DNA of 5,172 nucleotides from a virus (IMGVR_UViG_2778261249_000003:1-5172), one strand, 5' to 3'; counted from the first letter of the stretch, positions 1 through 5,172 are shown. A program made the numbers and translations. The notes: generated by a model from the letters alone, not told the origin.

Positions 1-534
1 CTGCGTATTCAGCAGGCGTTTGAAGGTTTAAGCGTCGCCGGGTCGGTGGGGGCCTATCAGTATCATGGTCGCAGTGCCGACGGGCGTGTCGCGGATATTT
101 CTGTCACCAGTCCGTCTCCGGCCTGCGTCACCATCTCTGTGCTGTCACGTGAAAATAACGGTGTGGCATCCGAAGACCTGCTGGCGGTGGTGCGCAACGC
201 CCTTAATGGTGAGGACGTCAGACCGGTGGCCGACCGTGTGACCGTGCAGTCTGCCGTCATCGTTGAATACCAGATAAATGCCACGCTTTACCTTTATCCT
301 GGCCCCGAAAGCGAACCCATTCGCGCTGCCGCCGTGAAAAAATTGGAAGCGTATATCACGGCACAGCACCGGCTGGGGCGCGACATCCGACTGTCTGCCA
401 TTTATGCCGCTTTGCATGTGGAAGGCGTGCAGCGTGTCGAACTGGCTGCACCGCTGGCCGACATCGTGCTCAACAATACGCAGGCGTCTTTCTGTACCGA
501 ATACAGCGTCGTGACCGGAGGCTCGGATGAGTGA
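1..534 (+). CDS. J: Baseplate assembly protein J, C-terminal part (5' end lies outside the window)
   Basis: Frame 1 is open from nt 1 with no stop until TGA at 532-534; the ORF track's start at 46 is an internal GTG. Sits directly upstream of the tail protein I homolog and overlaps its start (ATGAGTGA at 527-534), the J-I-H order of P2-like tail clusters. Assignment rests on synteny and recalled similarity, not a search. Confidence 0.8.
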   Translation: MRIQQAFEGLSVAGSVGAYQYHGRSADGRVADISVTSPSPACVTISVLSRENNGVASEDLLAVVRNALNGEDVRPVADRVTVQSAVIVEYQINATLYLYPGPESEPIRAAAVKKLEAYITAQHRLGRDIRLSAIYAALHVEGVQRVELAAPLADIVLNNTQASFCTEYSVVTGGSDE

Positions 535-1138
535 TTCGCGACTGCTGCCGACCGGCTCATCACCGCTTGAAGTCGCTGCCGCAAAAGCCTGTGCGGAAAT
601 TGAAAAAACGCCGGTCAGTATTCGTAAGCTGTGGAACCCGGACACCTGCCCGGCAAATCTGCTGCCGTGGCTGGCGTGGTCATTTTCGGTTGACCGCTGG
701 GATGATAAGTGGCCGGAAGCGACAAAACGCGCTGTTATCCGCGATGCGTATTTCATTCACTGCCATAAGGGCACTATAGGCGCAATCCGGCGTGTGGTGG
801 AGCCGCTCGGCTATCTGATTGAGGTGAGGGAGTGGTGGCAGCTCAACGAGGAGCCGGGGACGTTCCGCATCGTTGTTGGCGTGCTTGAGCAGGGTATTAC
901 CGAGGAAATGTATCAGGAGCTGGAGCGCCTCGTTACTGATGCAAAACCGGCAAGCCGCCATCTGACGGGACTGGCTATCAGTTTAAGTACAACCGGCAAC
1001 ATTTTTGCCGGTGCGGGATGCTATCACGGCGACGCCCTGACGGTTTATCCCTACACCCCGGAGGCCATTATTGTCGGAGGGGATTATTTCCCGGCCTCGG
1101 CCATTCATTTAATTGATAACCTGAGAGTAAACGCATGA
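527..1138 (+). CDS. I: Phage tail (baseplate) protein I
   Basis: 203-aa ORF starting MSDSRLLPTGSSPLEVAAAKA. GGAGG at 517-521 lies 5 nt upstream of ATG 527. Start overlaps the J stop and the stop (1136-1138) overlaps the H start (ATGA at 1135-1138). Position between J and the tail fiber gene. Confidence 0.88.
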   Translation: MSDSRLLPTGSSPLEVAAAKACAEIEKTPVSIRKLWNPDTCPANLLPWLAWSFSVDRWDDKWPEATKRAVIRDAYFIHCHKGTIGAIRRVVEPLGYLIEVREWWQLNEEPGTFRIVVGVLEQGITEEMYQELERLVTDAKPASRHLTGLAISLSTTGNIFAGAGCYHGDALTVYPYTPEAIIVGGDYFPASAIHLIDNLRVNA

Positions 1139-2502
1139 CAGTGAAATACTACGCCATTCTGACTAATCAGGGCGCGGCACGGCTGGCTAACGCGACGATG
1201 CTCGGCAGTAAGCTGAATCTGACGCAAATGGCCGTTGGTGATGCGAATGGTGTCTTGCCGACACCAGACCCGGCACAGACAAAACTGATTAATCAGAAAC
1301 GCATTGCACCGCTGAATCTTCTGAGTGTTGACCCGAACAACCAGAGCCAGATTATTGCGGAGCAAATCATCCCTGAGAACGAGGGCGGATTCTGGATCCG
1401 TGAGATTGGGCTTTATGATGATGAAGGCGTACTCATTGCGGTGGCGAACTGCCCGGAAACGTACAAACCGCAGTTGCAGGAAGGCAGTGGTCGTACCCAG
1501 ACTATCCGCATGATTCTGGTTGTCACGAATACCGAAGCTATTACGCTGAAAATCGACCCATCGGTGGTACTGGCGACCCGTAAATACGTGGATGATGAAG
1601 TCCTGGAATTAAGGCTGTATGTGGATGAACAGATGAGAAACCACATTGCCGCACAGGATCCTCATACCCAGTATGCACAGAAACATAATCCGACATTTAC
1701 CGGAGAACCAAAAGCGCCGACGCCTGCCGCAGGAAATAACACCACGCGGATTGCGACCACTGAGTTTGTTCAGGCCGCTATTACCGCTCTGATTAACGGT
1801 GCGCCAGCCACGCTGGACACACTGAAAGAAATTGCCGCAGCCATTAACAATGACCCGAAATTCAGCACCACCATTAACAATGCGCTGGCACTGAAAGCTC
1901 CGCTGTCGAGTCCCGCACTTACCGGAACGCCAACAGCACCTACTGCGGCACAGTCGGTCAACAATACACAGATTGCCACCACGGCTTTTGTGAAATCAGC
2001 AATTGCGGCAATGGTGGGTTCTGCCCCTGCGGCACTGGATACACTGAATGAACTGGCGGCGGCGCTGGGGAATGACCCTAACTTTTCAACAACAGTGCTT
2101 AATGCACTGGCAGGCAAACAACCGCTGGACAATACGCTGACTAATTTGAGTGGAAAGGATGTTGCTGGTCTTCTCGCATACCTTGGTTTGGGAGAAGCGG
2201 CAAAACGGAATGTGGGAACAGGGGAAAATCAGATACCTAGTATGTCAGAATGGACATCTGGGACAGGATGGAATAGAGACCCGTCGGGGAGAATAATACA
2301 GCGGGGATTTGCTATGACATCAAGTCAAACTAACATTTTATTCCCGATACCATTTCCGTATGACGATTTCGAAGTTATCGTTTGTGCAGCAGATACAGGA
2401 GCAAATAAAGGGGCCGTAAATGTGTTGCGAAAATCGAGGCAGGGGTTTTCTGTTTCACAGGTTGGAAGTATGCCAGTCGCATACAGATGGATAGCGGGGT
2501 GA
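1135..2502 (+). CDS. H: Tail fiber protein H: constant N-terminal shaft (aa 1-350) plus the currently expressed variable C-terminal tip (aa 351-455)
   Basis: 455-aa ORF. N-terminus (MTVKYYAILTNQGAARLA...MAVGDANG...GGFWIREIGLYDDEGVLIAVAN) is typical of P2/Mu-type tail fiber N-terminal domains. Contains two tandem ~75-aa repeats in the shaft. The left 26-bp crossover site lies in-frame at 2171-2196 (codons L-L-A-Y-L-G-L-G-E). Sequence downstream of the site is AT-richer. Confidence 0.9.
   Translation: MTVKYYAILTNQGAARLANATMLGSKLNLTQMAVGDANGVLPTPDPAQTKLINQKRIAPLNLLSVDPNNQSQIIAEQIIPENEGGFWIREIGLYDDEGVLIAVANCPETYKPQLQEGSGRTQTIRMILVVTNTEAITLKIDPSVVLATRKYVDDEVLELRLYVDEQMRNHIAAQDPHTQYAQKHNPTFTGEPKAPTPAAGNNTTRIATTEFVQAAITALINGAPATLDTLKEIAAAINNDPKFSTTINNALALKAPLSSPALTGTPTAPTAAQSVNNTQIATTAFVKSAIAAMVGSAPAALDTLNELAAALGNDPNFSTTVLNALAGKQPLDNTLTNLSGKDVAGLLAYLGLGEAAKRNVGTGENQIPSMSEWTSGTGWNRDPSGRIIQRGFAMTSSQTNILFPIPFPYDDFEVIVCAADTGANKGAVNVLRKSRQGFSVSQVGSMPVAYRWIAG
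2171..2196. other. Left crossover site for DNA inversion (gix/cix/pix-like, 26 bp): TTCTCGCATACC-TT-GGTTTGGGAGAA
   Basis: Two 12-bp half-sites around a 2-bp core (TT at 2183-2184). The right half-site GGTTTGGGAGAA is the exact reverse complement of the left half-site of the 3954-3979 site. Perfect 15-bp inverted repeat: 2183-2197 TTGGTTTGGGAGAAG versus 3953-3967 CTTCTCCCAAACCAA. Half-sites fit the TTnTCnnAAACC-type pattern of Hin/Gin-family sites. Confidence 0.85.
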
Positions 2503-2507
2503 TTGAA

Positions 2508-2945
2508 ATGTATAAATTTGATCCAAAGAATGCATTATTCTATCCTGCCGCGTCAATTTCCGATTATAAATTGAGCGAAGATGAAATCGCCACATTCACT
2601 GATATTAGCGAGGAGGATGCAACCGAGTTTTTAGGATTCCCGCCGACTGGAAAAATCAGAGGGTCGGACGGTTATGGCAATCCTGCATGGGTTGAAATAC
2701 CTCCACCATCACATGAGGAACTTATTGAACAGGCCGAATCAGAGAGGCAATTATTGATTAACCATGCCAACGAATACATGAACAGTAAACAATGGCCTGG
2801 TAAAGCGGCTATTGGTCGTCTGAATGGTGAGGAACTGGCGCAATATAATTTGTGGCTGGATTATCTGAACGCACTGGAACTGGTTGATACCTCCAGTGCG
2901 CCAGATATTGAATGGCCTACGCCTCCGGCAGTTCAGGCCAGATGA
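2508..2945 (+). CDS. Tail fiber assembly (chaperone) protein, expressed orientation
   Basis: ORF ending ...LAQYNLWLDYLNALELVDTSSAPDIEWPTPPAVQAR, the conserved C-terminal motif of phage tail-fiber assembly proteins. ATG 2508 is preceded by GGGG at 2496-2499 (8-nt spacer) and follows the H stop (2500-2502). An in-frame ATG at 2487 would overlap H by 16 nt and has no obvious SD, so the start is ambiguous between 2487 and 2508. Confidence 0.8.
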   Translation: MYKFDPKNALFYPAASISDYKLSEDEIATFTDISEEDATEFLGFPPTGKIRGSDGYGNPAWVEIPPPSHEELIEQAESERQLLINHANEYMNSKQWPGKAAIGRLNGEELAQYNLWLDYLNALELVDTSSAPDIEWPTPPAVQAR

Positions 2946-3510
2946 CATCCGGCGCGGTGCTGGTATCTGTTGCCGTCACCGCGTCAATGTAATCCAGCAC
3001 AGCGTTAAGTCGGGTGGTTTCTGCCTGCGTCAGTTTACGTCCGGCCTGCAATTTCAGTTGAATCAGACTGATGGAAGCCATTGCAGTATCAATCAGCGAC
3101 TGGCGCTGTGCTTCTGCTGCATCTACTGCGGCGCTATGCTGTGCCTCAGTATCTGTCACCCATTTCTCACCATCCCATTTATCGTATGGCGTTAACGGTG
3201 AAAGCGTGACATAACCGTCTTTGATGGCACCGATATAATCCACTGTAACAGCTGCGCCATTTTCGATTGAGTAAACAGTCTCATTGCGGTGGTCTTCTTC
3301 ATGGCTCCATCCCTTACCCGTAAATACTGCCACTTTCCCCGGAATGTATTCGCCCGGGTCAATACCAGTGGAACAGGCGGGCATACTTACGCCAGTATTA
3401 ATATATTCATCAGACCAGCCCGTATACTCAGATGTTTCAGCATCATAATAAAAACAACGCATATCGCCCGGCACTGTAGCCAGCCCATTTTCATCAAAAA
3501 CAGGTTTCAT
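2917..3510 (-). CDS. Tail fiber assembly (chaperone) protein, alternate copy (Tfa') inside the invertible segment
   Basis: 197-aa minus-strand ORF with C-terminus ...LNAVLDYIDAVTATDTSTAPDVIWPELPEA, the same motif as the + strand chaperone, but an unrelated N-terminal half. Its ATG (3508-3510) overlaps the stop of the upstream minus-strand fiber cassette (TAATG). GAGGG lies about 9 nt upstream on the minus strand. Its 3' end overlaps the + strand chaperone gene by 29 bp (2917-2945). Confidence 0.85.
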   Translation of the reverse strand: MKPVFDENGLATVPGDMRCFYYDAETSEYTGWSDEYINTGVSMPACSTGIDPGEYIPGKVAVFTGKGWSHEEDHRNETVYSIENGAAVTVDYIGAIKDGYVTLSPLTPYDKWDGEKWVTDTEAQHSAAVDAAEAQRQSLIDTAMASISLIQLKLQAGRKLTQAETTRLNAVLDYIDAVTATDTSTAPDVIWPELPEA

Positions 3511-4007
3511 TATTTAGCCCTCACCAGAAAGTTAAATGCAATATTTCGCGGTCTGACAGCAACAAAATTCACACCATCACCCACAGAGTTACTGGTGAAA
3601 TTAAATCGTGAAAATCCTGGCTGATTTCCGGCGATGCCATCATGAAAGTTAATTGCGTGTCCCGCACCTCCGCCTATATTCCCGGCAAACTGAGAAAAGT
3701 TTGTAGCTTCCTGCCAGCTTAATAATTCGCGACCACCATCGGCACCTCGCCCGTCATCCCAGATACGAATGAAATCACCGCGGGCTTCAGGTAATACCAG
3801 TGAAGGAAACACTTTCGCCAGCACAGGGTAATCAGAGGCAGAAAATTTCGCCCCGTTGAACTTCAAAAACACCATACTGGACCAGCTGTCGATTACAGTA
3901 TTTGGCATTGCAGCGGACGGCCAGAAGAACGGAACGCCAATAGCTGGAGCACCTTCTCCCAAACCAACGTTTATGAAAATGCAGAGATAACGGGCAAGTG
4001 GCATCAT
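3510..4007 (-). CDS. Silent alternative tail fiber C-terminal cassette (Sv'-like; tail-collar-type receptor-binding tip), not joined to a fiber N-terminus in this orientation
   Basis: Minus-strand ORF, 165 aa as drawn from a Met-Met at 4007. The right crossover site (3954-3979) lies within it, encoding G-L-G-E in the same codon phase as the left site in H. The downstream 151 aa (GAPAIGVPFFWPS...LPEARGDFIRIWDDGRGADGGRELLSWQ...) carry a motif recalled as the phage tail-collar domain. Functional extent after inversion would be 3510..3966 fused to H codons 1-350. Confidence 0.75.
   Translation of the reverse strand: MMPLARYLCIFINVGLGEGAPAIGVPFFWPSAAMPNTVIDSWSSMVFLKFNGAKFSASDYPVLAKVFPSLVLPEARGDFIRIWDDGRGADGGRELLSWQEATNFSQFAGNIGGGAGHAINFHDGIAGNQPGFSRFNFTSNSVGDGVNFVAVRPRNIAFNFLVRAK
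3954..3979. other. Right crossover site for DNA inversion (26 bp): TTCTCCCAAACC-AA-CGTTTATGAAAA, inverted relative to the left site
   Basis: Core AA at 3966-3967 is TT on the minus strand. The reverse complement TTTTCATAAACG-TT-GGTTTGGGAGAA matches the left site in its core and entire right half. Located 55 bp upstream of the invertase start codon. Confidence 0.85.
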
Positions 4008-4034
4008 CTCCGGTTTTTATTCAGGGGGATGCTC

Positions 4035-4628
4035 ATGCTTATTGGCTATGTACGCGTGTCAACAAATGACCAGAACACGGAATTGCAGCGTAACGCGCTG
4101 GAGTGCGCAGGATGTGAGCTGATTTTTGAGGATAAAATCAGCGGCACGAAGTCCGACAGGCCGGGGCTGAAAAAACTGCTCAGAACATTATCGGAAGGTG
4201 ACACTCTGGTTGTCTGGAAGCTGGACCGGCTGGGGCGTAGTATGCGGCATCTGGTCATTCTGGTTGAGGAGCTGCGCGAACGCGGCATTAATTTTCGCAG
4301 CCTGACGGATGCCATTGATACCAGTACGCCGATGGGGCGTTTTTTCTTTCATGTGATGGGTGCCCTGGCTGAAATGGAACGAGAGCTCATTGTCGAGCGG
4401 ACTCGGGCCGGGCTGGAAGCGGCCAGAGCCAAAGGTCGTATTGGTGGCAGACGTCCTAAACTCACCGCGAGTGAGTGGGAGCAGGCCGGGCGTTTGCTGG
4501 CTGCAGGGGAGTCACGTCAACGCGTGGCACTGATTTTTGATATTGGTCTGTCCACGCTCTATAAAAAATTTCCCTCATCAGCGACAAAGAATAAATTGTG
4601 TCATCCCTTAGCCAACCGGGACAAATAG
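4035..4628 (+). CDS. Serine-recombinase DNA invertase (Gin/Cin/Pin/Hin family)
   Basis: Translation MLIGYVRVSTNDQNTELQRNAL...LVVWKLDRLGRS...GINFRSLTDAIDTSTPMGRFFFHVMGALAEMERELIVERT...RIGGRRPKL... has the resolvase/invertase catalytic domain with the nucleophilic Ser at codon 9 (TCA 4059-4061) and a C-terminal HTH region. AGGGGG at 4023-4028 lies 6 nt upstream of ATG 4035. The ORF-track start at 4029 would leave no spacer after that SD. The gene lies immediately outside the right crossover site, as in the Gin/Cin/Pin arrangement. Confidence 0.93.
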   Translation: MLIGYVRVSTNDQNTELQRNALECAGCELIFEDKISGTKSDRPGLKKLLRTLSEGDTLVVWKLDRLGRSMRHLVILVEELRERGINFRSLTDAIDTSTPMGRFFFHVMGALAEMERELIVERTRAGLEAARAKGRIGGRRPKLTASEWEQAGRLLAAGESRQRVALIFDIGLSTLYKKFPSSATKNKLCHPLANRDK

Positions 4629-4687
4629 CCTGACATCTCCGGCACAACTGAAAATACCACTCACCCATTAACCACGGAGTTGAACGG

Positions 4688-5172
4688 ATGAGTGACTATC
4701 ATCACGGCGTGCAGGTGCTGGAGATTAACGACGGCACCCGCGTCATTTCCACCGTATCCACTGCCATTGTCGGCATGGTCTGCACGGCCAGCGATGCGGA
4801 TGCGGAAACCTTCCCCCTCAATAAACCGGTGCTGATTACCAATGTGCAGAGCGCAATTGCAAAGGCCGGTAAAAAAGGCACGCTGGCGGCATCGTTGCAG
4901 GCCATCGCCGACCAGTCAAAACCGGTCACCGTTGTCGTGCGTGTGGAAGACGGCACCGGCGACGATGAAGAAACGAAACTCGCGCAGACCGTGTCCAATA
5001 TCATCGGCACCACCGACGAAAACGGCCAGTACACCGGACTGAAAGCCCTGCTGGCGGCGGAGTCGGTAACCGGTGTTAAACCGCGTATTCTCGGAGTGCC
5101 GGGACTGGATACCAAAGAGGTGGCTGTTGCACTGGCATCAGTCTGTCAGAAGCTGCGCGCTTTCGGGTATAT
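4688..5172 (+). CDS. FI: Tail sheath protein FI, N-terminal part (3' end lies outside the window)
   Basis: ATG at 4688 preceded by GGAG at 4676-4679 (8-nt spacer). Frame is open to the window end (161 codons, no stop); the six-frame track omits it for lack of a stop. Translation [54 protein letters not shown]... matches my recollection of the P2 FI sheath N-terminus. Confidence 0.88.

Follow-up and report, generated by a model that had tools for sequence, protein, structure and literature searches.

Tail-fibre end of an Escherichia coli P2-like prophage with a highly probable Gin/Cin/Pin/Fin-type inversion switch beside FI

The mechanism by which the Hin invertase acts with Fis and a recombinational enhancer has been described, as have its 26-bp hix sites (PMC3798978). 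Closer to the locus considered here is the prophage Fels-2, for which PMC3535392 (citing Kutsukake 2006) reports a Fin invertase and a 2.7-kb invertible segment, and states that Fin is experimentally active and is also able to invert the H segment. Inversions have been seen by sequencing in P2-like prophages of EPEC (PMC4272514), and a 2024 preprint notes that this P2 hotspot often houses an invertase, adjacent genes being inverted (bioRxiv 10.1101/2024.10.15.618418). Invertases and tail fibres are not mentioned in Rousset et al. 2022 or in the 2026 NAR paper on P2/P4 hotspots. A tail-fibre inversion switch beside FI in P2-like prophages is already known, and the present example has little significance as a discovery, the switch being documented in Fels-2/Fin, in EPEC P2-like prophages and in hotspot surveys.

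Here, we describe a 5,172-nt stretch of DNA (the window) that is very probably the tail-fibre end of an E. coli P2-like (genus Peduovirus) prophage carrying an inversion switch of the Gin/Cin/Pin/Fin type. The gene order across the window is J (C-terminus), I, H, a chaperone, an inverted second chaperone, a second H 3' end, an invertase and FI. The individual features, with window coordinates and strand, are as follows.

46-534, plus strand: baseplate gene J, 3' portion, forming the upstream flank; Pfam Baseplate_J, E=1.7e-17; 97-99% aa identity to P2, pro483 and STYP1
527-1138, plus strand: gene I (baseplate/tail protein); Pfam Tail_P2_I, E=5e-56
1135-2184, plus strand: constant part of H (codons 1-350, up to the crossover); Pfam Phage_tail_fib (tail-collar fibre) N-terminal domain, E=1e-62
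2171-2196, no strand: left 26-bp crossover site, cixL-like, TTCTCGCATACC-TT-GGTTTGGGAGAA, centre 2183-2184; inverted repeat inside H
2185-2502, plus strand: variable 3' end of H, Sv, expressed in the window orientation, 105 aa; Pfam Gp53-like_C, E=4e-7
2487-2945, plus strand: expressed tail-fibre assembly chaperone, 152 aa; Pfam Caudo_TAP, E=5e-31; PHROG 188
2917-3510, minus strand: silent alternative chaperone, 197 aa; Pfam Caudo_TAP, E=3e-27; PHROG 105
3510-3965, minus strand: silent alternative H 3' end, Sv', 151 aa; PHROG 3100 tail fibre, E=2e-52; 98% aa identity to 500465-2
3954-3979, no strand: right 26-bp crossover site, cixR-like, TTCTCCCAAACC-AA-CGTTTATGAAAA, centre 3966-3967; inverted repeat just upstream of the invertase gene
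4035-4628, plus strand: Gin/Cin-type serine DNA invertase, 197 aa; PF00239, E=3e-52; HTH_7, E=1e-12 (residues 140-183)
4053-4124, no strand: putative recombinational (Fis) enhancer within the 5' end of the invertase gene, proposed from position and homology only
4593-4687, plus strand: pF late promoter region with a predicted Ogr-type activator site, TGT-N12-CCA, by similarity to P2
4688-5172, plus strand: tail-sheath gene FI, 5' portion, forming the downstream flank (ATG at 4688); PHROG 23 tail sheath; 98-100% aa identity to FI of P2, pro483 and STYP1

The P2-type synteny that the first-pass annotation had claimed for the flanks (J, I, H, chaperone ... FI) is borne out by the order of the Pfam domains and by aa identities to P2 of 97% for J, 88% for the N-terminus of I and 98% for the N-terminus of FI (4688-5170). 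Its placement of Z/fun between G and FI in P2 agrees with NC_001895, in which the annotated order is J, I, H, G, a terminator, fun(Z) on the minus strand, the pF activator site and FI. The corresponding interval of the window (2946-4687) had been said to hold the second half of an invertible segment and an invertase gene, and we indeed found there a Caudo_TAP chaperone and a tail-fibre C-terminus, both on the minus strand, followed by a serine invertase. The region singled out in that annotation starts at 2184, in the centre of the left crossover site, and ends at 4687, the base preceding the FI ATG. A search of the window proteins against NCBIfam returned zero passing families; close relatives with an annotation exist for each of the ORFs.

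In the window orientation, H extends from 1135 to 2502. Its constant part shares 98-99% aa identity with P2-T22 and 500465-2 but only 51-53% with P2, and the attached Sv end recurs with 100% identity in the E423 prophage, against 42-56% elsewhere. The E423 annotation labels its fibre gene 'integrase', an error put down to the inversion. The two chaperone genes are convergent, with a 29-nt overlap, and the silent one has 96% aa identity to its 500465-2 counterpart, which sits in the expressed orientation there. Computed inversion joins Sv' to H codon 350 in frame to give an H' of 501 aa, and the H gene is in frame in both orientations of the segment. The coding content of the invertible segment consists of tail-fibre tip and chaperone pairs, with no other gene, and its GC content is 47%, as against 56-58% in the flanks.

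The two crossover sites share a central TT, which reads AA in the right site as the reverse complement, and they lie in inverted orientation as in Din systems. The left site is 100% conserved in five other phages (pro483, T22, 500465-2, Cartapus and KP12). A chance origin of this 26-27-nt inverted repeat was considered and ruled out, because the sites are conserved and flipped isoforms occur naturally. Specifically, strains E7 and APEC17 carry the flipped isoform, at 100.0% identity across 2351 nt, and strains 64.1, E5 and GPEC1258 carry the window orientation, also at 100.0% identity; these natural orientations come from different strains, not from one culture, and represent population-level rather than biochemical evidence. 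When flipped in silico, the whole window aligned gap-free along all 5172 nt with E. coli strain E7, at 11 mismatches, and an inversion computed at 2184/2185 and 3965/3966 gives exactly the E7 and APEC17 junctions. In the strain E7 annotation the H gene is split into two pseudogene fragments, a result of inversion. Sequence comparison indicates that the segment inverts at the predicted crossover; for this particular strain, ongoing inversion and its rate are presumed. That the switch is instead a frozen relic, in which inversion no longer occurs, is extremely unlikely. Decay does happen in this lineage, as the frameshifted P2-T22 invertase attests, but the invertase ORF is intact here and contains the catalytic-serine motif YVRVST, the two sites carry the same central TT, and prophages differing at just 11 of 5172 aligned positions are found in both orientations with exact junctions.

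The invertase itself matches Gin (3UJ3) over residues 1-182 (E=1.2e-94) and the Hin DNA-binding domain (1HCR) over residues 139-188, and it is 79-80% aa identical to P1 Cin and Mu Gin. Its catalytic nucleophile motif reads MLIGYVRVST (Ser9), with Ala at the serine position in the crystallised 3UJ3 mutant. Judged by its catalytic domain, its HTH and the accompanying 26-bp inverted sites, the enzyme is a small serine recombinase of the Din (Gin/Cin/Pin/Hin/Fin) subclass. At 197 aa it exceeds the usual ~185-195 because of an 11-aa tail from pF DNA: the tblastn match to Cin stops at residue 186, beyond which the pF promoter supplies 11 further codons. An ATG at 4029 is unlikely as the start, since it overlaps a GGGGG ribosome-binding site. 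Within the window, neither a simple sigma-70 promoter scan for the invertase nor a terminator scan between chaperone and FI gave a candidate above shuffle expectation. Din systems have a Fis-bound enhancer in cis, roughly 100 bp from one of the sites. The putative enhancer at 4053-4124 aligns with the annotated P1 enhancer (cin nt 19-90) and lies 86 nt from the cixR centre, its conservation being inseparable from constraint on the N-terminal coding sequence.

With respect to mechanism, we propose that the 197-aa serine invertase would recombine the 26-bp inverted sites at 2171-2196 (in H) and 3954-3979 (upstream of its own gene). The resulting inversion of a 1.78-kb segment would exchange the last 105 codons of H and the 152-aa chaperone for 151 codons and the 197-aa chaperone, such that a lysogen population may give rise to virions with either of two receptor-binding tips, with a likely consequence for host range. 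By analogy with Hin, Gin and Cin, the reaction would be expected to require host Fis, acting from the putative enhancer at the start of the invertase gene. We consider it very improbable that inversion chiefly benefits the lysogen, for instance by turning on a prophage product against adsorption of other phages. A precedent of this kind is offered by PinQ/PinR in E. coli cryptic prophages, as reported in PMC12529663, yet both halves of the present segment are canonical tip and chaperone pairs, in frame with an intact H and part of an apparently complete tail cluster, and the segment encodes nothing besides.

Turning to the relationship with P2, blastn homology ends at ~963 inside gene I and returns at 4608 in the pF promoter, and it follows from this loss that the I C-terminus, the entire H and the chaperone are also of non-P2 type. 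Gene I is itself mosaic near 963: its N-terminal 145 aa are P2-type and its C-terminal 58 aa are not, the latter showing 50% aa identity to P2, 98-100% to pro483/T22 and 86% to 500465-2. On the other side, 4608-4688 is 98% identical to P2 (96-98% in the FI-side flank), a stretch that takes in the P2 transcription start and, of the activator site annotated there, the right part. The TGT-N12-CCA activator site in the window is the same as in P2, and the invertase ORF runs into it, so that the two overlap. A hairpin terminator upstream of pF is present in the empty-slot phages STYP1 and MDG45 and absent in the window; by hairpin scan, P2 retains only its right arm and T-tract.

These observations bear on the first-pass suggestion of a modular insertion or exchange at a known hotspot of P2-like phages. 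The hotspot part stands, the position being that of P2 Z/fun and the hotspot being recognised in the literature. As to insertion or exchange, the slot does turn over and the cassettes are mobile, but the difference is not a discrete insert between G and FI, as non-homology runs from ~963 to 4607. Hotspot cargo would be a discrete insert with the usual junctions, leaving H, G and the hairpin intact, and would have a non-virion function such as defence or lysogenic conversion. Here we found the 963-4608 gap, no hairpin and a left site within H, and what the slot holds is a tail-fibre tip with a chaperone, together with the invertase responsible for switching.

One account of this arrangement is the recent gain of a discrete module, comprising half the segment and the invertase, in the Z/fun slot of a P2-type phage whose H-G pair was plain. 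Near-identical Peduovirus backbones, with J and FI at 97-100% aa, do exhibit three slot states, namely empty (STYP1), Z/fun (P2) and the inversion module (window), which implies recent slot turnover, and the low GC of the segment relative to its flanks points the same way. We nonetheless regard this account as improbable. Relative to P2 and STYP1, the differing block begins within gene I and takes in all of H and the chaperone; the downstream half alone cannot make a switch, the left site being inside H; invertase identity parallels backbone identity over four genera; the right junction is unlike that of Z/fun; and neither a flanking duplication nor a mobile-element signature was seen.

The parallel between invertase and backbone deserves further comment. 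The invertases of pro483 and T22 are 98% aa identical to that of the window, with J/FI at 99-100%; those of Fels-2, Cartapus and KP12 are at 85-86%, with J/FI at 64-66%; and that of 500465-2 is at 76%, with J at 53%. This ranking covers eight loci only, and its signal is shallow in a Din family so compressed that Mu Gin and P1 Cin still reach 79-80%. The first-pass annotation had expected invertase and cassettes alike to depart from the phylogeny of the structural genes; the invertase goes against this expectation, its identities ranking with theirs, whereas the cassettes are discordant. It looks as though the invertase has been in the family for a long time, with loss in P2 being as plausible as gain here. 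It is quite possible, although we would stop short of calling it probable, that the module is ancestral or old in the Peduoviridae, that the second cassette and the invertase disappeared from phages such as P2, STYP1 and the 186-like Yersinia phages, and that the space became a cargo hotspot, occupied by Z/fun in P2. In four genera (Peduovirus, Felsduovirus, Elveevirus and Gemsvirus) the module lies directly 3' of the tail-fibre genes, invertase identity declines together with J/FI identity, and Fels-2 and Cartapus also have an activator site, TGT-N12-ACA, after the invertase stop. Against an ancestral module stand the small sample, the conservation of Din enzymes, which lets horizontal transfer among enterobacterial phages mimic congruence, and the loci of the invertase-less P2, STYP1 and MDG45, in which remnants were sought and neither cix-like sites nor invertase fragments were found.

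The cassettes behave differently from the invertase. The segment 2183-3967 (1785 nt) recurs with 0 mismatches in a prophage that is integrated at dusA and has tail genes of Mu type. The invertase of that prophage is 51-54% identical to that of the window, its flanks have no detectable similarity, and the identity of the segment starts and stops at the central TT/AA of the two sites. On these alignments, the invertible cassettes clearly pass horizontally between unrelated phages, independent of the backbone, with breakpoints at the crossover sites. The region as a whole is a mosaic comprising at least four separately assorting modules, namely the P2-type backbone (J, I N-terminus and pF-FI), the I C-terminus with the H constant part, the invertible cassettes and the invertase.

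The coincidence of the boundaries of identity with the crossover dinucleotides is directly observed. As to the catalytic route, we raise tentatively the possibility that phage types swap a self-contained segment exactly at these dinucleotides, in a natural recombinase-mediated cassette exchange by Din invertases. Din invertases normally need strict intramolecular topology, and for that reason exchange catalysed by them would be unexpected. Homologous recombination, or selection on conserved half-sites, would provide an alternative route. Exchange at inversion sites is reportedly an old idea, due to Sandmeier, Iida and Arber in the 1990s, and may also form part of Nilsson et al. 2004 (MBE).

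In a survey by megablast, with a coverage threshold, of a redundant collection of 5426 complete E. coli genomes, pF and FI were present in 1681, the invertase-pF-FI junction in 550 and the P2 Z/fun-side junction in only 13. The inversion layout, which had been described before, is the common one; P2 is the exception. Canonical P2 accordingly makes a poor reference here, the invertase layout being ~40x commoner than Z/fun in complete E. coli genomes. A 1.78-kb inversion between assemblies of such prophages is biological rather than an assembly error, and prediction of host range for P2-like prophages needs both fibre tips.

Among known loci, that of P2 is equivalent in position, with Z/fun placed equally relative to pF and FI, between the chaperone gene and pF/FI. 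It differs in cargo, holding an unrelated, AT-rich insert of 2.25 kb that encodes fun(Z) on the minus strand, and in H and G, which belong to another type and have no cix sites. The Mu G segment with Gin and the P1 C segment with Cin share with the window 26-bp inverted sites and an alternative S/U-type tip and chaperone pair, and in P1 an enhancer is annotated in the 5' end of cin. Both phages have unrelated backbones and larger segments (about 3 and 4.2 kb), however, and in P1, taking the constant part of the fibre gene as reference, cin is at the other side of the segment.

The layout of the window is found in pro483, P2-T22, Cartapus, KP12, 500465-2 and Fels-2. In Fels-2 (Salmonella Typhimurium LT2) the order is J, I, H, G, G' (inverted), H' (inverted), invertase, FI and FII, its invertase is 86% aa identical to that of the window, and FI is preceded, downstream of the invertase stop, by an activator-type site. 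It belongs to another genus, with a backbone at ~66% aa and cassettes that are not alike, and its invertase ends before the activator site, whereas the window ORF runs over it. The variable cassettes of the Escherichia phages pro483, S164, P2-T22 ('Peduovirus magyaro') and Salmonella phage MET_P1_103_31 are at 39-65% aa, and P2-T22 differs further in its frameshifted invertase and an atypical right site. The invertases of these four, which are of the same genus, are 97-98% aa identical to that of the window, including the 11-codon extension, and pro483 and P2-T22 match the window at 93-100% aa over J, I, the H constant part and FI, with crossover sites and an invertase-pF junction as in the window.

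Annotation of the window by ORF listing combined with Pfam and PHROG scans gave the following layout:

46-534, + strand, C-terminus of J
527-1138, + strand, I
1135-2502, + strand, H (455 aa)
2487-2945, + strand, Caudo_TAP chaperone
2917-3510, - strand, second Caudo_TAP chaperone
3510-3965, - strand, second tail-fiber C-terminus
4035-4628, + strand, serine recombinase
from the ATG at 4688, + strand, N-terminus of FI

The recombinase start is 4029 in the ORF list; judged from the GGGGG ribosome-binding site and from all homologues, the probable start is instead the ATG at 4035. The interval of 2184-4687 assigned to the inversion module by the first-pass annotation is accurate, as 2184 is the crossover center and 4687 the last base before FI. 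The chaperone genes converge, with an overlap of 29 nt (2917-2945), and an 18-nt inverted repeat (2855-2872 and 2981-2998) corresponds to their homologous 3′ ends.

The sole long inverted repeat in the window pairs 2171-2197 with 3953-3979. The 26-bp crossover sites at these positions, cixL on the left (TTCTCGCATACC-TT-GGTTTGGGAGAA) and cixR on the right (TTCTCCCAAACC-AA-CGTTTATGAAAA), possess identical inner half-sites and matching central dinucleotides. Inversion of 2185-3965 in silico preserves the reading frame and generates a 501-aa fusion (H′), followed by its own chaperone through a TAATG stop/start overlap. A 2351-nt query carrying the flipped segment matched E. coli E7 and APEC17 in a single piece at 100.0% identity, and the unflipped query matched E. 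coli strains 64.1, E5, and GPEC1258, also at 100.0%. The E7 locus aligned with the whole flipped window over 5172 nt with 11 mismatches and 0 gaps. These matches indicate that the switch is real and that flipping has occurred in nature. The annotation of the E7 prophage, which is in the flipped orientation, splits H into two partial pseudogenes (1736-3241 of locus L012).

With respect to the invertase, the protein aligns with Gin (PDB 3UJ3) across residues 1-182 (E=1e-94), contains the YVRVST serine motif, and shares 79-80% identity with P1 Cin and Mu Gin. In an alignment, the annotated P1 enhancer (cin nt 19-90) matches window 4053-4124. This segment is 86 nt away from the center of cixR, a spacing that resembles the ~100 bp of Hin (PMC3798978). 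By analogy, we infer that the switch would depend on Fis and on this candidate enhancer. The window evidently carries a functional tail-fiber inversion system of the Gin/Cin/Pin/Fin type. In P2-T22 (locus L002), the invertase gene (5629-6200) carries a small frame-shifting deletion and is annotated as 164 aa, and the right site (5532-5573) is a perfect copy of cixL in inverted orientation, extended by 4 nt from the constant region of H and then followed by the usual outer half-site; the switch of this phage looks to be decaying or rearranged.

The P2 reference record has the order J, I, H, G, terminator, fun(Z) on the opposite strand, pF (the late promoter, annotated with its activator site and transcription start), and FI, in agreement with the P2 gene order given in the first-pass annotation. 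Its placement of the exchange between G and FI, however, proved too narrow. In a blastn comparison of the window with the P2 stretch, extended homology at high identity was confined to 334-963 (89%) and 4608-5172 (96%), with two further weak partial matches (67-73%) within H. As proteins, the I C-terminus and H share only 50-53% identity with P2, as compared to 88-98% for J, the I N-terminus, and FI. Taken together, these patterns define the block exchanged relative to P2 as 964-4607, which takes in the C-terminal part of I and the complete H gene together with the chaperone gene, the second cassette, and the invertase gene. A mosaic junction is visible inside gene I, at window ~963.

Segment-by-segment identities across phages show that the region consists of independent modules. 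The backbone (J, I N-terminus, and FI) is 97-100% identical in amino acid sequence to pro483, T22, STYP1, and P2 (88% for the I N-terminus of P2). Its identity drops to 64-66% for Fels-2, Cartapus, and KP12, and J is 53% identical to that of 500465-2. The invertase gives 98%, 85-86%, and 76% in the same phage order, and it appears to follow the backbone. The I C-terminus and the constant part of H, in contrast, are 86-99% identical to 500465-2 although its backbone is distant, and only ~50% to P2 and STYP1 although their backbone is near-identical. Identity over the last 58 aa of I varies together with that over the H N-terminus (98-100% in pro483/T22, 86% in 500465-2, 50% in P2/STYP1), which suggests that the I C-terminal domain is matched to the fiber that it anchors. 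For the silent alternatives Sv′ and chaperone′, identity is 96-98% to 500465-2, in which they have the expressed orientation, and only 39-64% to pro483 and T22. Relative to 500465-2, the half-cassette breakpoint lies within window 2855-2998. The observation in the first-pass annotation is confirmed, and its interpretation as a modular insertion or exchange is partly supported: the cassette identities support cassette exchange, whereas for the invertase, which appears to follow the backbone, a recent and discrete insertion is not supported.

The most interesting by-product of this analysis is base-pair-precise sharing of the cassette with an unrelated prophage type. The whole invertible segment (window 2183-3967) is present with 0 mismatches in E. 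coli E423 (NZ_CM173464.1; 5001-6785 of locus L010), within a dusA-integrated prophage whose tail genes are of Mu type and whose invertase has only 51-54% amino acid identity to that of the window. The limits of identity are exactly the central dinucleotides of both crossover sites, and no similarity was detectable between the flanks of the E423 prophage and those of the window. Cassette exchange is accordingly well supported, and the sharing fits old proposals of inversion sites as module boundaries. The E423 fiber gene (L010 6328-7074) is labeled 'integrase'.

In terms of the slot before pF and FI, 128-138 nt come after the chaperone gene in STYP1 (whose backbone is 99% identical) and in the 186-like Yersinia phage MDG45, and these include a strong hairpin terminator immediately upstream of pF. 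Of this hairpin, P2 has kept no more than the right arm and the T-tract, which lie downstream of the 2.25-kb Z/fun insert, and the hairpin is missing in the window, pro483, and T22. In these last three, the invertase ORF runs 11 codons past its Cin/Gin-homologous end, and this extension (LCHPLANRDK tail; window 4593-4628) crosses the pF activator site, TTGTGTCATCCCTTAGCCAACC, which is TGT-N12-CCA as in P2; the TAG stop (4626-4628) lies inside promoter DNA 98% identical to P2 pF. The invertases of Fels-2 and Cartapus, in contrast, end before a TGT-N12-ACA site. By this hairpin and ORF comparison, the three states of the slot differ in their junctions. The invertase-less loci (P2, STYP1, and MDG45) contained no cix-like sites or invertase remnants, and gain and loss are therefore alike compatible.

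Among 5426 complete E. coli genomes, with a match requiring at least 80% coverage of the query, P2-type pF with the FI 5′ end was found in 1681, a 600-nt query over the invertase-pF-FI junction in 550, and the equivalent query over the Z/fun-side junction of P2 in 13. Annotations of pro483 and P2-T22 (Peduovirus) show the genes as H, chaperone, inverted chaperone′, inverted H′, invertase, FI, and the same arrangement is recorded for Cartapus (Elveevirus), KP12, and Fels-2 (Felsduovirus). Clone OM835953 of KP12 is listed under Vequintavirinae, yet its locus is P2-like. In 500465-2 (Gemsvirus; L004 6947-8064), by contrast, tail tube and tape-measure genes on the opposite strand come after the invertase in place of FI, which indicates that the invertase travels with the fiber genes rather than with FI and that the fiber-invertase module is not bound to the G-FI slot. 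The Z/fun hotspot has been described as often holding a DNA invertase with adjacent genes inverted (preprint, bioRxiv 10.1101/2024.10.15.618418), and inversions have been found by sequencing in P2-like prophages of EPEC (PMC4272514). For Fels-2, the invertase Fin and its invertible segment of 2.7 kb are known from experiments, according to a passage in PMC3535392 citing Kutsukake 2006. The position and layout of the window switch are already described for P2-like prophages.
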